A stretch of DNA of 39,775 nucleotides from Thermoplasmata archaeon (GTDB lineage Archaea; Thermoplasmatota; Thermoplasmata; Lutacidiplasmatales; UBA184). The position numbers and the translations under genes are program-made. This document shows, piece by piece, positions 1,644 to 6,509 of this stretch. How positions within the stretch are numbered: the first letter of the stretch is position 1; the number at the start of each line of letters is the position of its first letter. Where the stretch lies: the NCBI GenBank assembly GCA_030040775.1, contig JASHTB010000067.1, positions 1 to 39,775 of the forward strand. Reading direction: 5' to 3'. The notes under the pieces are model-generated. The model was not told where the DNA came from and did not search any database. It worked only from the letters and a program-made list of their open reading frames with translations.

Positions 1644-1730
1644 GCGCCTCGGACCGGATCGGTCGGTATAGCAACTTCTCCTGCTGGGTTCGCGCTCTAT
1701 ATGTTGCGAGCGGAATGCGCGACGGAGGCG

Positions 1731-3101
1731 GTGGAGTCGGTGAACTCGGAGCCGGACTGGCGGTCGGCCGTACGCGTCCGGGAGGACTCCGCCCTTGCTT
1801 CGGAGCTTACCGAGCGGCTGGCTCGGGCGAGCCCGCAACCGGCCGTGGGCGTCACCGACTTGGTCGCGCTCCGGCGGGCGTTCTGGCGGCGTTCCGGTCC
1901 TCCGGTTCCGATCCCTCCCGAGCGTGAGGCGCGCATCGAGGCCGGTCGCCGGTTGCATCGACAGCTGGAACGAGTCGTCGCGCCGGACGGCGCGCTCGAG
2001 GTTCGAGTGCGCCGGGACGGCCTCGTCGGCCGTGTGGACGCGCTCACCGACCGTCCGATCGAGCTGAAGACGTCCTCCCGCGTCGTGGAGCCGGAGTCCC
2101 TCGTCGCCGACCGGCCGGACCAGGTCGAGCAGCTCGGGATGTACTGTGCCCTCCTCGACCGTCCGGTCGGCCGCCTCGTCGCTCTGGCCACGCCCTCCGG
2201 TTCGGTCGAGGGAGTCCGAACCTGCGACATCGCGTACCGAGACCTTCCGGCGATCCGCGGCGAGATGGTGCGGCGGGCGGACCGGCTGCGAGAAAGCCTC
2301 GGCCTAGGCCGGGCCGCCGGACTTCCCCGATGCCGATGGTTCGCTCTGGGCTGCGAGTACCGAATCGAGGGGACCTGCGACTGCACGGGAAACGAACCGG
2401 AGACCTCCTCGTTCGTCCTCGAGCAGGTCGAGAAGATCGAGCCGCGGCCCGACGTGGATGCCGATCTCGAACCACGGCTCCGCGCCGTTCCTCGAGGGGC
2501 GCCGGGCCCTGTCGTCCGTCGTTTCCGGGACATGATCTATCCCCGCCGAGCGTACTATGACGAGACCCGGCCGATTCCCCCGGTCCACGAGGCGGCCAGC
2601 CCCGAACGAGCCGCGGGACGGGAATCGTACCGACGGCTCCTCGAGGCGTTCGAGGGTGGTCCGGTCGGAGAGGTCACCCGTCTTCCTTCCCTCGCAGATG
2701 AACCCGAAGAGGAGGTCGGGGGGTTCCGGGGTGAGCCGTTCCTCCTCCGGGCCTCCCGGGCCAAGGCGCCGCGAAGCGCCGAGGAGCTGCTCGACCGGTC
2801 GCCTCAGTATGCCCTCGAGCTCGGGTTCCGGTGCGTGGCCACCGGTCACTCGTCGGGCCGAGCGATCGTCGGCTTCGAGTCGGTCGCCGGCCGCGCGGGA
2901 GAGGTCCGCGTGGTCGAGTTCGCCTTCTCGCCGATCAGCACGTTCTCTCGGCTGTGGCGCGAGAGGAGCCACCGGTGGGAGGAGGCAGTCCGCGCGCGGA
3001 CCCCCCTCGCGCTCACTCCGTGTCCGGCGTGGATGTTCGCCGCCTGCCCTTACCGAGCCGAGTGCGCGTGCGACTCGGCCGGTGGGCGTTCCCAGCGGTA
3101 G
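1731..3101 (+). CDS. Tandem Cas4-like / PD-(D/E)XK nuclease-family protein with two Cys-rich modules
   Basis: Domain 1: VTDL..RRAFW, GRRLH, GRVDAL...IELKT, EQLGMY, CRWFALGCEYRIEGTCDC. Domain 2: RDMIYPRRAYY...CPAWMFAACPYRAECAC. Likely start is GTG 1731 after GGAGG (alternative 1701). Confidence 0.75.
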   Translation: MESVNSEPDWRSAVRVREDSALASELTERLARASPQPAVGVTDLVALRRAFWRRSGPPVPIPPEREARIEAGRRLHRQLERVVAPDGALEVRVRRDGLVGRVDALTDRPIELKTSSRVVEPESLVADRPDQVEQLGMYCALLDRPVGRLVALATPSGSVEGVRTCDIAYRDLPAIRGEMVRRADRLRESLGLGRAAGLPRCRWFALGCEYRIEGTCDCTGNEPETSSFVLEQVEKIEPRPDVDADLEPRLRAVPRGAPGPVVRRFRDMIYPRRAYYDETRPIPPVHEAASPERAAGRESYRRLLEAFEGGPVGEVTRLPSLADEPEEEVGGFRGEPFLLRASRAKAPRSAEELLDRSPQYALELGFRCVATGHSSGRAIVGFESVAGRAGEVRVVEFAFSPISTFSRLWRERSHRWEEAVRARTPLALTPCPAWMFAACPYRAECACDSAGGRSQR

Positions 3102-4015
3102 ATCGTCGCGCTCGCGATGGTCCGGAAGCCGTTCGCGTCGTAGAGCCGGCGGGCCTGCTCGTTCGACCGGGTTACCCAGAGATGGACGCTCGAGTAGCCG
3201 AGCGCCCAGAGCGCTCGCATTCCCCAGCGGAGGAGACGCTCGCCCAGTCCCCGACCTCGGTGGGCCGGGTCGACCATGAAGTCGAGGAAGATTCCACGGC
3301 GAGCCGACTGCTCGGCCGACAGGATCGCGCCCACGAGACGGGAGGGTTCGGTCGTGACGAGGGCGGCCGACGCCTCGGGGAGGAACCGCCCGAGCCTTCC
3401 GTCCATGAGGGCGCGGAGAATCCGGGCGTAGTCCTCGGAGGAGCGTCCGATGAGGAGCTCGTCGGTCGTCCCCGCGAACGCGCGATGGTCGAGGTCGGCG
3501 AGGGCCTCGAGGGTCACGTCGGAAAGGGGGACCTGCCGAAGGCCCGGGGGAAGGGGTCTTCCCTCGGTAGCGTCGGACGGTCCGAGGGTCCGTTCCATCG
3601 CGTCCCGCTCGATCACGGTCGACCCCGGTCGGGTCGCGAGCCGTTCGAGGACGCGTCGCTCCTCCTGGGGGGGTAGGCCGGTGAAGCCGAGGTCGACCGA
3701 GGTCAGGTCGGACGCGGTCTTCTCGAGAAGGACGGTCGCGAGCCGGAACGCCCGGTCCTCTGCGCCAGCAGCTCCCGCGACGTGCACATGGCCGAAGCCC
3801 TCGGCCCCTCGGACCGTGTAGAACGCCAGGCCGCCGCCTTCCGACGTAGGGTAGAACCAACCGGTCTTACGGCCGGCGGTGAGGTCGGCGGCGACCTCCT
3901 CCACCCACGCGCCGGTCGGTGACTCCTCCCGGTTCGCGAGCGCACGCCGAAGGAGCTGCGCGAGCTCGAGCAGCTCCTCCGACGGAGCGCCGAGCGTCGA
4001 CCGCGGAGCGTCCAC
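3050..4015 (-). CDS. GNAT family N-acetyltransferase, probably with two GNAT-like halves
   Basis: C-terminal acetyl-CoA motif MVDPAHRGRGLG and LWVTRSNEQARRLYDANGF. The 321 aa length suggests an additional N-terminal domain. Confidence 0.85.
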   Translation of the reverse strand: MDAPRSTLGAPSEELLELAQLLRRALANREESPTGAWVEEVAADLTAGRKTGWFYPTSEGGGLAFYTVRGAEGFGHVHVAGAAGAEDRAFRLATVLLEKTASDLTSVDLGFTGLPPQEERRVLERLATRPGSTVIERDAMERTLGPSDATEGRPLPPGLRQVPLSDVTLEALADLDHRAFAGTTDELLIGRSSEDYARILRALMDGRLGRFLPEASAALVTTEPSRLVGAILSAEQSARRGIFLDFMVDPAHRGRGLGERLLRWGMRALWALGYSSVHLWVTRSNEQARRLYDANGFRTIASATIYRWERPPAESHAHSAR

Positions 4016-4998: not shown

Positions 4999-6360
4999 TC
5001 ACAGCTCGTCGTCGCTGGCCTTCGGGGCGGACTTCTTTGACCGGCGGACTCGGGGGCGGGGTCGCCCGCGGTGGGCCCCCCGGTCCGGTTCCTTCGGCGG
5101 GACCCGGCGATGCGAACGTCGAGGAGGCCCCTCCTCTTCGTCCTCGTCCTCGGGTTCCCGACGCCACGGACGCAGCGACCCCCAACCCTGGCGCGCTCGG
5201 CCACGGCCTTCCGACGACCCTTCTTTCGCACCTTCGGCCTCGTCCTCTTCCTCCTTTCTGAGCGGCGTCTCGATCCCTTCTACGCGAAGGGCATAGTGGA
5301 CCCCGAAGGCGAGCAGGATGGCGCCCGTGATCGTCAAGCCCATGAACTCCCACGATTGGGAAGGCACCTCGGCGGTGTTCCCCTCGAAGAGGAGCTTGAG
5401 GGAACCGAACCACGGGATCATTCCACGCGCGACCCCGATCACCCACGACGGCTCAACGAGCTCGCTGATCGCGGGCCCCCCCGGGGTCGTTCCGGCCTCC
5501 TGGTCGGGTTCGCCCGTACAGCCGCGTCCCGGGGTGCATACCACGTTGTTGTCTCCCATCGTCACGAATCCCGAGTGGTCTCCGAGCGCCGGGGACGATA
5601 GGTCCAGCGCGACGTTCGCGGACTCCCATCCGATGTGGTAGAGGTCGAGCGTGCCGGTAAGGTTCGTCGTGCCGCAGTCGTTCAGGGTCCCGGGCGTCGC
5701 GTAGACCGCGTTGGAGGCCGAGCCGCACGGAAGTCCGTTCAGTTCGCTCGCATCGTAGCTCGAGGAGCTCGGGTTCCAGGAGAGGTAAACGATCGCACGA
5801 TGGATCACGGGCGTCCCCCCTCCGCCGTTGGGATGGTAGAGAACGACATCGCCGTACTCGCCGTACGTGGAGTAACTGGTCTGGAGTCCCACCACGTAAG
5901 GCACAATGGTGCTCGCGTCGACCTTCTCGGCGAGGACGAGGTCTCCCGTGTTGATCAGACCAAGAATGTCGTTCGGTCCGTGCTGCATGCTGTCCGATTC
6001 GACGACATAGACCGGCGGCCAGTTCTGGGTGTAGGCGTAGAGACCGGAGAGGAGGACCACGATGACCGCGAGCGCGACCAGAGGCTCGAAGTAGAGCGAG
6101 TCACGGGCCCGCCAGAACACCGGGTGGCGTTCCCGGGATAGCCAGTGAGGCCTCGCCCCGGCCCGCGGCGTTTCGGAATCCACTTCCTCGTCCTCGTCGT
6201 CCTCGGGTCCCCTCCACCGTCGAACAGGAGGAGGACGTGAGGAGGGGTTCCGGCGGGGTCGGCGCCGTCGCGCCCGCCGGTAGCTCTCCTCCTCTTCCTC
6301 CTCGTCCTCGTCGTCAAGATCTTCGTCGTCCGACCGGGACGGCCGGTGAGGCAGAACCAT
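4999..6360 (-). CDS. Archaeal signal peptidase I (S26, Sec11-type) with charged disordered termini
   Basis: TM segment, then VVESDSMQH (catalytic Ser), INTGDLV, PVIHRA (His) and TMGDNN, then a C-terminal TM. Start ATG 6360 chosen because a TTATG box lies about 25 nt upstream. Confidence 0.88.
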   Translation of the reverse strand: MVLPHRPSRSDDEDLDDEDEEEEEESYRRARRRRPRRNPSSRPPPVRRWRGPEDDEDEEVDSETPRAGARPHWLSRERHPVFWRARDSLYFEPLVALAVIVVLLSGLYAYTQNWPPVYVVESDSMQHGPNDILGLINTGDLVLAEKVDASTIVPYVVGLQTSYSTYGEYGDVVLYHPNGGGGTPVIHRAIVYLSWNPSSSSYDASELNGLPCGSASNAVYATPGTLNDCGTTNLTGTLDLYHIGWESANVALDLSSPALGDHSGFVTMGDNNVVCTPGRGCTGEPDQEAGTTPGGPAISELVEPSWVIGVARGMIPWFGSLKLLFEGNTAEVPSQSWEFMGLTITGAILLAFGVHYALRVEGIETPLRKEEEDEAEGAKEGSSEGRGRARQGWGSLRPWRREPEDEDEEEGPPRRSHRRVPPKEPDRGAHRGRPRPRVRRSKKSAPKASDDEL

Positions 6361-6509
6361 CCTCGATGCCTGCCCGAAGGGTCGCATAACCCTTCGGCTC
6401 GACGGGCACGAGCGCGGATCGTGCCCTGGGAGTCGAGGGAGAGCGACACGCGAACTCTTAAGGTCCGGTGTCGCCCCCGGACGAGGGAGAGCTCGCCCCG
6501 GAGGACCCC

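Follow-up and report, generated by a model that had tools for sequence, protein, structure and literature searches.

A tandem Cas4-like protein of Thermoplasmata that combines a predicted active nuclease module with a homologous module lacking the catalytic residues

The Tandem Cas4-Like Gene and Its Two-Module Product

An open reading frame (ORF) of 466 codons was found at positions 1701..3101 of the forward strand in a stretch of 39,775 nucleotides from a Thermoplasmata archaeon (GenBank assembly GCA_030040775.1, contig JASHTB010000067.1; this whole stretch is called the window below), and the product of this ORF (P0001) is referred to here as the tandem Cas4-like protein. The codon-position G+C content of the gene (0.76/0.56/0.82) matches that of the neighboring genes (0.74/0.55/0.85), a pattern that the long ORFs on the opposite strand do not have, and the ORF is real and coding. 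The motifs quoted in a preliminary description of this DNA were all present in the translation of 1701..3101, each where that description had placed it.

An alignment of 104 diverse homologues (A2, to which all counts out of 104 refer) was cut into an N-half (residues 20–235) and a C-half (residues 236–466), and the two halves were compared, profile against profile, with hhalign. They matched over 206 columns at 20% identity, with a probability of 99.9% and E = 3e-33, which indicates an internal duplication far beyond chance. An AlphaFold2 model of the full chain, made on A2 (predicted local distance difference test score, pLDDT, 93.2; predicted template modeling score, pTM, 0.91), showed the same series of elements twice, namely a strand, a helix, two short helices, a long helix, three strands, two helices, two strands, a long helix and a Cys-rich end. 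The internal duplication that had been claimed from the letters alone was thus borne out by the profile comparison and by the repeated order of secondary structure in the model.

The first copy of this series opens with a strand–helix element (1758..1835, +, residues 20–45; strand 24–28 and helix 30–42 by DSSP of the model), which recurs before the second copy and was aligned with its counterpart by hhalign. Module 1 follows at 1836..2393 (+, residues 46–231), and both the structural comparison and the profile search assign it a Cas4/RecB-like PD-(D/E)XK core that is predicted to be active. With VIA-align, the best match of module 1 was the Cas4 protein SSO0001 (4ic1_A; Z 15.1, root-mean-square deviation 2.8 Å, 164 residues, 25% identity), followed by Cas4-Cas1, AdnA, Exo5, RecE and lambda exonuclease at Z 9–11; the family profile, when compared with the sequences of the PDB, also reached 4ic1 (E = 1.1e-6). 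The modules are joined by a linker which, together with the second strand–helix element, occupies 2394..2504 (+, residues 232–268; helix 238–241, strand 243–248 and helix 250–261 by DSSP). This joined stretch is the least conserved part of the protein, with a mean entropy of 3.12 as against 2.33 in the core of module 1 and 2.70 in that of module 2.

The structural matches of the full model all fell on module 1, and residues 236–466 were then folded alone (pLDDT 91.5, pTM 0.83) and compared with 48,161 representative chains by VIA-align, without a Foldseek prefilter. As shown by this comparison, module 2 (2505..3080, +, residues 269–460) has a Cas4-like fold in the model as well: its top match was again 4ic1_A (Z 12.0, 3.5 Å, 168 of 202 residues, 12% identity), and rows 2–22 were all nucleases of the same Cas4/RecB/lambda-exonuclease type of fold, including the dead RecC domain 1w36_C at Z 6.8. 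Foldseek on the C-half agreed (MGME1 at 1.9e-4 and 4ic1 at 3.1e-4). A C-terminal half that lacked similarity to PD-(D/E)XK folds, which had been named as the finding that would speak against a pseudo-dimer, was therefore not what was observed. According to the models and the hhalign comparison, the protein is a single chain with two homologous Cas4/RecB-like PD-(D/E)XK folds, an arrangement kept across the family, and the tandem with one full active site that had been proposed earlier holds good. A prediction of a homodimer of two copies on A2 scored 0.00 against a mark of 0.42 and carries no weight either way.

Active Site of Module 1 and Its Loss in Module 2

In module 1, the N-terminal helix motif that bears 'CPR' in ordinary Cas4 reads VTDLVALRR (1851..1877, +, residues 51–59), with the Cys deleted, as judged from alignments to SSO0001 and to the single-module relatives described below. 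H86 (in GRRLH; 1956..1958, +), conserved in 95/104, aligns with the His of 'GDILHL' in SSO0001, which we take to be the metal ligand His62, its number not being printed by the alignment. The D...ExK motif, consisting of D113 (RVD) and E121-L-K123 (IELK), lies at 2037..2069 (+), and all three residues are invariant in the A2 columns (104/104). It is followed at 2130..2144 (+) by Q144-x3-Y148 (QLGMY, the QhxxY of the RecB family), also invariant, and then by C149, which is present in 67 of the 104 homologues. The Mn ligands of SSO0001 are given as His62, Asp99, Glu113 and the carbonyl of Ile114 (excerpts of PMC12501428). When the family profile was aligned to 4ic1, H86, D113 and E121-x-K123 fell on the H, D and ExK of SSO0001. 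By alignment, module 1 keeps the catalytic metal ligands of the SSO0001 type (H, D and E-x-K) together with QxxxY, and we infer that this module cuts DNA.

The counterpart of the 'CPR' helix in module 2 is YPRR (2538..2549, +, residues 280–283, within RDMIYPRRAYY, residues 276–286), in which P281 is found in 100/104 and R282 in 98/104. The hhalign mapping placed the D...ExK of module 1 on G340 ... L348-L-R350 (2718..2750, +) and its QxxxY on E373-LGF-R377 (2817..2831, +), after which comes C378, present in 82 of the homologues. Six active-site residues are replaced in this mapping: H86 by Y310, D113 by G340, E121 by L348, K123 by R350 (position 350 is R in 55/104 and K in 40/104), Q144 by E373 and Y148 by R377. 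These substitutions agree with the earlier claim that module 2 had lost its catalytic residues, and no conserved acidic residue was found in module 2 across the 104 sequences of A2. Among 40 close homologues, the mean pairwise identity of module 2 was 51.8%, compared with 51.6% for module 1, and among the 104 diverse homologues the values were 25.8 and 33.2%, respectively. Nearly invariant in module 2 are P281, R282, P346 (102/104), R/K350 and W/F/Y444. Judged from these alignments, module 2 is dead but not decaying, and its conservation among close relatives equals that of module 1.

Cysteine Groups of the Two Modules

Each module ends in a conserved local group of Cys residues, as had been noted before. 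Group 1, a putative local four-ligand metal site, is C211-x6-C218-x7-C226-x-C228 (2331..2384, +). In the A2 columns, C218, C226 and C228 are present in 104/104 and C211 in 103/104; the spacing Cx6Cx7CxC is kept in 89/104, and all 104 homologues hold at least four local Cys. Group 2 is C441-x7-C449-x5-C455-x-C457 (3021..3071, +), with C441 and C449 in 104/104, C455 in 103/104 and C457 in 55/104 by column. When group 2 was counted by raw spacing, at least four local Cys were found in 95/104, with varied spacing (Cx4Cx2Cx5C in seven), and in the remaining 9/104 only three Cys are present, with G-[D/E] after them in eight proteins and G-G in one.

The arrangement of the Cas4 type, with an N-terminal 'CPR' Cys and a C-terminal Cx2Cx5C, is absent from both modules, where the spacings are Cx6Cx7CxC and Cx7Cx5CxC. 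When SSO0001 is set against the family profile, the Cys of the Cas4 'CPRR' is an inserted residue that the family lacks, and the alignments to SSO0001 and to the single-module proteins uphold the earlier observation that this Cys is missing in both modules. All Cas4 proteins are stated to have four conserved Cys (excerpts of PMC5704561).

The replacement of the ligands was followed in an alignment of 19 single-module proteins, 36 N modules and 36 C modules. Nine of the 19 single-module proteins carry the canonical Cys in 'DLxxC(L/I)R', and eight of these nine lack the Cys of 'LPxC', the remaining one (P0293) having both. In the other ten, the N-terminal Cys has been removed by the deletion of one residue, and 'LPxC' is present in 10/10 of them. 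W-x-C-x2-C-x5-C is kept by all 19, with an insertion inside the x2 gap in P0238, P0297 and P0299. In all 72 tandem modules, the N-terminal Cys is absent and 'LPxC' is present; in most of them the first Cys of Cx2C has been lost and a terminal CxC gained, and in a smaller number of C modules the ancestral Cx2C Cys persists without a CxC. The alignment shows that the place of the lost N-terminal Cys has been taken by the Cys that opens the group ('LPxC', C211/C441), and that the CxC Cys (C228/C457) stands in for the leading Cys of the ancestral Cx2C. The preliminary description had taken the terminal CxC as the substitute for the N-terminal Cys, and this part of it has to be revised.

Two ligands moved and their count stayed at four, which argues that one four-coordinate metal centre is required per module. 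By homology to the cluster site of Cas4, the metal is probably an iron–sulfur (Fe-S) cluster. There is a precedent for a local site in the DNA-repair enzymes Endonuclease III and MutY, in which a [4Fe-4S] cluster is held by four Cys of a short contiguous C-terminal segment (Cx6Cx2Cx5C), in an unrelated fold, that of the helix-hairpin-helix glycosylases. As a separate observation, the single-module protein P0293 was the sole protein seen with both the N-terminal Cys and 'LPxC', which gives it five candidate ligands; it is possibly an intermediate in the ligand move.

Single-Module Relatives and the Order of Events

In addition to tandem proteins, the search of representative sequences gave proteins of 226–267 amino acids that end directly after the Cys group. 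A further search gave 16 proteins of 208–255 amino acids at E ≤ 1e-5 (query included), of which the named ones come from metagenome-assembled genomes (MAGs) of Nanoarchaeota and Jordarchaeaceae. The single-module 'LPxC-x4-C-x2-C-x5-C' proteins (P0233, P0245, P0285–P0288 and others, from MAGs of Nanoarchaeota and other archaea) have the strand–helix element and the active site in common with the tandem family, as well as the loss of the N-terminal Cys and the gain of 'LPxC', and they branch just below it. They differ in being one module of 218–267 amino acids with the ancestral Cx2C, whereas a protein of the tandem family comprises two modules, mostly with a terminal CxC; these single-module proteins are uncharacterized too.

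A maximum-likelihood tree was calculated with IQ-TREE (quick search, LG+G4) from 91 rows and 222 columns, with no rows dropped, and was rooted on the nine canonical single-module proteins; its supports are those of the Shimodaira–Hasegawa-like approximate likelihood ratio test (SH-aLRT), without bootstraps. The N modules grouped in a single clade, for which the group table gives an SH-aLRT of 93 and the printed tree a value of 78 at the stem, the C modules formed another (98), and the two clades were sisters (93), with the rewired single-module proteins branching below them. Two C modules, C_P0226 and C_P0244, had long branches. The tree fits an order of events in which a canonical solo Cas4-like protein would have undergone first the ligand move and then one tandem duplication, after which the C module would have lost its active site.

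Family Size and Domain-Library Matches

A word-index protein search, in which 8000 candidates were scored, gave 274 proteins at the cut-off of E ≤ 1e-3. Among the 120 matches listed, identities were 46–63%, save for the identical P0002 (100%), lengths were mostly 415–485 amino acids (378 in P0027), and the named entries were called 'hypothetical protein' or 'PD-(D/E)XK nuclease family protein', from Thermoplasmata MAGs. An exhaustive search of representatives at 50% identity gave 233 clusters at E ≤ 1e-3, of which 76 also reached E ≤ 1e-30, with full-length two-module matches reaching down to about 20% identity.

Pfam gave no match for the query, and PF01930 was found neither in the query nor in any of the 104 homologues (E ≤ 0.01). 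TIGR00372 (Cas4) scored 17.7 bits on the query, over residues 51–156 only, against a cut-off of 65, and the Cas4 matches of PADLOC were weak and sub-threshold. PDDEXK_1 (PF12705) was not found in the query, while 36 of the 104 homologues match it (best E = 5e-8), as do the single-module relatives P0233 (4e-7) and P0245 (2e-9); from these matches, the tandem family is therefore placed as a divergent member of the PDDEXK_1 superfamily. Its neighbors in the ESM Atlas come from Thermoplasmatota and bear the automatic label 'PD-(D/E)XK endonuclease-like domain-containing protein'.

In the literature searched, whose scope did not extend to subscription-only papers and supplements, a tandem or pseudo-dimeric Cas4 was nowhere described. 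The words 'tandem' and 'duplicat' were absent from the Cas4 phylogenomic study PMC5704561, and a look-up by term in the PD-(D/E)XK survey PMC3424549 gave no tandem Cas4. Within this literature, the live/dead Cas4-like protein of two modules is previously undescribed; its fold, its chemistry and the pairing of a live with a dead domain all have precedents.

Distribution and Genomic Surroundings

The genome to which the window belongs (G000) comprises 1.46 Mb in 124 contigs, is 82% complete and has the tandem gene in a single copy. The sequencing runs listed for this DNA were eight peat-metagenome DNA sets from two studies, with no RNA set among them. When 401 genomes of the class were sampled, this one included, 69/401 matched at E ≤ 1e-5. 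Counted by family and without G000, matches were found in 49/59 genomes of the window's family (f1), 13/43 of f20 and 2/2 of f30, with single matching genomes in f3, f6, f11 and f27 and no match in, for instance, f8 (0/48) or f17 (0/44) of the class sample. The tally of the window's family includes three unpublished genomes (G302, G098 and G212), all matching, without which it is 46/56. A sample of 301 genomes of the phylum gave two matches outside the class, one of them partial at a contig end and the other a frame of 227 amino acids. Oxyplasma meridianum, which is in culture, carries a homologue (P0276) that is named a 'hypothetical protein'. Two full-length copies were seen in G097 (family f11). 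Stop codons lay inside the matched stretch in four genomes, one TAG each in G133 and G330 and one TAA each in G114 and G184; the ORF of G114 (locus L084) is intact with 473 amino acids, and its stop is probably upstream of the start.

In species-representative genomes, 95 relatives were found, and the following counts refer to the best 80 of the 95, whose protein identities are 36–61%. All 80 loci are MAG records, 75 of them titled Thermoplasmata archaeon, with Thermoplasmatales archaeon, Candidatus Lutacidiplasmatales, Methanobacteriota archaeon and 'bacterium' occurring once each. The gene nadB lies upstream and divergent in 77/80 loci, a GNAT acetyltransferase gene lies downstream and convergent in 79/80, prs is present in 76/80, the gene of aIF2-gamma in 58/80 and, beside prs, a gene for a protein without a Pfam family in 70/80. 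In the window, that last protein (4999..6387, −, 462 amino acids) has strongly acidic/basic low-complexity N- and C-termini. Distant members of the family (L082–L086) share none of the window's neighbors and lie among other housekeeping genes. In L084 a DEAD-box helicase gene is oriented divergently, and in L085 an Lhr-type helicase gene lies two genes away, neither of which recurs. The distribution and the surroundings are consistent with a gene inherited among housekeeping genes, by vertical descent in a few Thermoplasmata lineages.

Neither a CRISPR-like array nor cas genes were found in the window, and a search of the genome, 82% complete, gave neither Cas1 nor Cas2. Within the window's family, Cas1 was present in 14/60 genomes of one sample and the tandem gene in 49/59 of another, drawn separately, and one genome that is 100% complete (G010) has the tandem gene and no Cas1. 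The tandem protein is not tied to CRISPR, as these counts support, and the earlier statement that no cas1 or array lay in the window stands; the protein appears to act outside CRISPR, as had been suggested.

Proposed Function and Alternative Explanations

The best match in both sequence and structure, SSO0001 of Sulfolobus solfataricus (PDB 4ic1), has the layout H/D/ExK/QxxxY in common with module 1, and its Cys-rich C-terminal segment lies within the aligned range. It differs in that its cluster is held by one N-terminal and three C-terminal Cys, whereas in the tandem protein the N-terminal Cys is deleted and all putative ligands are local. SSO0001 is one module of about 200 amino acids that forms a toroidal decamer with [4Fe-4S] clusters, whereas the tandem protein consists of two fused modules, the second one dead (excerpts of PMC12501428 for SSO0001). 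The live and dead modules may be likened to RecB and RecC, in which an active nuclease of the RecB family stands beside a dead homologue (excerpts of PMC3424549), and an Fe-S staple is carried by AddB (excerpts of PMC12501428). RecBCD and AddA/AddB, however, are large helicase-nuclease machines of separate chains, whereas the tandem protein is one chain of 50 kDa without a helicase domain. The Solo-Cas4 of Methanosarcina mazei (M. mazei), compared here by description, is also archaeal and non-CRISPR, has a [4Fe-4S] cluster and cleaves DNA in a metal-dependent manner, but it is a single module in an oligomer of about 318 kDa and is reported without a RecB motif and with a four-Cys iron-staple (excerpts of PMC12501428).

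On balance, we favor, with somewhat more than even confidence, a stand-alone, chromosomally inherited, non-CRISPR Fe-S DNA nuclease of the Cas4/RecB type whose dead half is a built-in partner. Such a protein would have arisen by one tandem duplication of a solo Cas4-like protein of about 230 amino acids, through which the interface of a homo-oligomer would have been turned into an asymmetric pair within a single chain. Each module would bind an Fe-S cluster, most likely [4Fe-4S], at the place of the Cas4 'iron staple', tied by a contiguous C-terminal segment and not by the 1+3 Cys. Module 1 would cleave DNA with Mg or Mn, most likely at single-stranded 5' ends or flaps, as other Cas4 proteins do, and module 2 would be a non-catalytic partner that holds the DNA or shapes a channel, comparable to the dead RecC domain beside RecB. 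The cellular role would be genome maintenance, that is, end processing in repair, recombination or replication, and not CRISPR adaptation.

Several points weigh against this proposal. The metal (Fe-S or Zn), the substrate and the polarity are all inferred for every member of the family, and the protein scores below every curated family threshold. A contiguous segment of 17–18 residues with four Cys could equally bind Zn. The Solo-Cas4 of M. mazei prefers supercoiled double-stranded DNA over single-stranded DNA (excerpts of PMC12501428), and therefore the usual preference of Cas4 for single strands is not simply transferable. No DNA-repair gene is among the conserved neighbors, and no conserved partner gene recurs in the distant lineages. 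In two distant members, the neighboring genes include some of RNA processing, namely the exosome subunits Rrp4/Rrp41 (L083) and the termination factor FttA (L084).

These last neighbors would fit a nuclease of RNA processing or decay, in which module 1 would cut RNA. Some PD-(D/E)XK enzymes do act on RNA, such as Rai1/Dxo1 and the tRNA-splicing endonuclease; the C-half gave weak structural matches to Rai1/Dxo1 (Z 4.3–4.6), and in the window the genes of aIF2-gamma and Trm112 lie within 6 kb. The RNA-related neighbors, however, are not common to the lineages, the Rai1/Dxo1 matches are under the level where chance arrangements are common, and the best relatives in structure and sequence are all DNA nucleases (Cas4, AdnA, Exo5, RecE, lambda exonuclease and MGME1, Z 8–15), which makes an RNA substrate unlikely. 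A structural or regulatory DNA-binding protein with a disused nuclease site and with Zn knuckles of Cys in place of Fe-S would suit the local four-Cys segments, with which Zn is compatible, and inactivated Cas4 derivatives exist, such as the nucleocapsid protein of TTV1 (excerpts of PMC5704561). It is nevertheless quite improbable, because D, ExK and QxxxY are invariant in 104/104 down to about 20% identity, which argues for an active site in use.

A role in defence, in which the protein would degrade invading DNA as a solo Cas4, alone or with an unlinked partner like ACE1, was part of the preliminary description. Solo Cas4 and Cas4 of mobile elements are common (excerpts of PMC5704561), the Argonaute-associated Cas4 ACE1 provides a precedent (excerpts of PMC12094033), and the ESM Atlas neighbors include viral Cas4-like clusters with scores of 0.96–0.97. 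The gene surroundings do not favor this role: no defence genes were found beside the tandem gene, the PADLOC matches stay sub-threshold, the gene is single-copy with a housekeeping synteny that is kept in up to 79 of the 80 loci despite their divergence, and the tree is consistent with vertical descent inside few lineages. We therefore consider it distinctly unlikely. Still harder to credit is a trans-acting Cas4 that trims prespacers for a Cas1-Cas2 encoded elsewhere, which would agree with the similarity of module 1 to SSO0001 and with the minority of family genomes that have Cas1; the explanation is largely refuted by the distribution, given the complete genome with the tandem gene and no Cas1, the excess of the gene over Cas1 in the family, and the window and 82%-complete genome in which Cas1, Cas2 and an array were not found.

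A more specific form of the DNA-end reading starts from NurA, which was found in 1/59 genomes of the window's family (0/43 in the genus), while a HerA-like ATPase was found in 61/61 genomes of a separately drawn family sample that includes G000. The tandem protein would then be a minimal, helicase-free processor of DNA ends that took over the 5'–3' resection role of NurA in the window's family; in the manner of RecC, the dead module would hold on to a single strand or to the 5' end, which the live module would degrade, and the two Fe-S clusters would tie the pair. Against such a replacement, NurA and the tandem gene co-occur in f20 (NurA 37/43, gene 13/43) and in f30 (2/2 each), many of the NurA matches elsewhere are near the threshold, and a divergent NurA could escape detection. 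This view is regarded as speculative and has a small chance of being right.

Fe-S nucleases of the Cas4/RecB type are known as single domains that oligomerize or as parts of large helicase-nuclease machines, and a natural live/dead pair in a single chain would be a simple setting in which to study the contribution of the second subunit of such nucleases. The family also appears to record a stepwise migration of cluster ligands along the protein with the four-fold coordination kept, which may be useful for the evolution and the design of Fe-S sites. Moreover, it flags a conserved, unannotated candidate for genome maintenance in Thermoplasmata of soil and peat, of which the homologue of Oxyplasma meridianum is open to bench study.

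Start Codon, 3' Overlap and Further Genes

Three start codons are candidates for the tandem gene, ATG 1701, GTG 1731 and GTG 1740, of which the preliminary description had chosen GTG 1731. An identical database protein of 453 amino acids implies the start at GTG 1740, and the true start is probably GTG 1731 or GTG 1740. A TATA-like CTATAT, read off the sequence at 1697..1702 (+), overlaps ATG 1701, and because of this position a leaderless or short-leader start at GTG 1731 or 1740 is plausible. The putative short-leader transcript would share a divergent promoter region of about 90 bases with nadB, whose likely start is close to position 1643 (−).

The 3' end of the tandem gene (+) overlaps the convergent GNAT acetyltransferase gene (3050..4015, −), as assigned from the ORFs and the GNAT domain, by 52 bases (3050..3101). 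An overlap between the two genes was found in 78/79 related loci, with an identical offset in 52/79. It sets the codons of C455 and C457 opposite the final codons of the GNAT protein, and the two C-termini, with the conserved ...GRSQR tail among the parts concerned, may be under constraint from it.

Two further genes of the Cas4 family, both with the canonical Cx2Cx5C, are present elsewhere in the genome. One (L087, G000:C29, 1264–1845) encodes a Cas4-like protein of 193 amino acids (PF01930, E = 7e-7) with the Cx2Cx5C at its C-terminus and a hydrophobic N-terminal stretch instead of the usual N-terminal helix, and it is possibly membrane-anchored. The other (L088, G000:C62, 1–1038; PDDEXK_1, E = 8e-26) lies at a contig edge and probably represents the C-terminal portion of a helicase-nuclease of greater length that was cut by the assembly. 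The HerA-like ATPase of this genome (L089, G000:C42, 5598–8505; 486 amino acids, DUF87, E = 4e-31) is encoded beside a divergent DUF7121 gene and genes unrelated to it; NurA is absent from that locus, which shows no link to the tandem gene, and the DUF7121 protein might be the nuclease partner of the ATPase.

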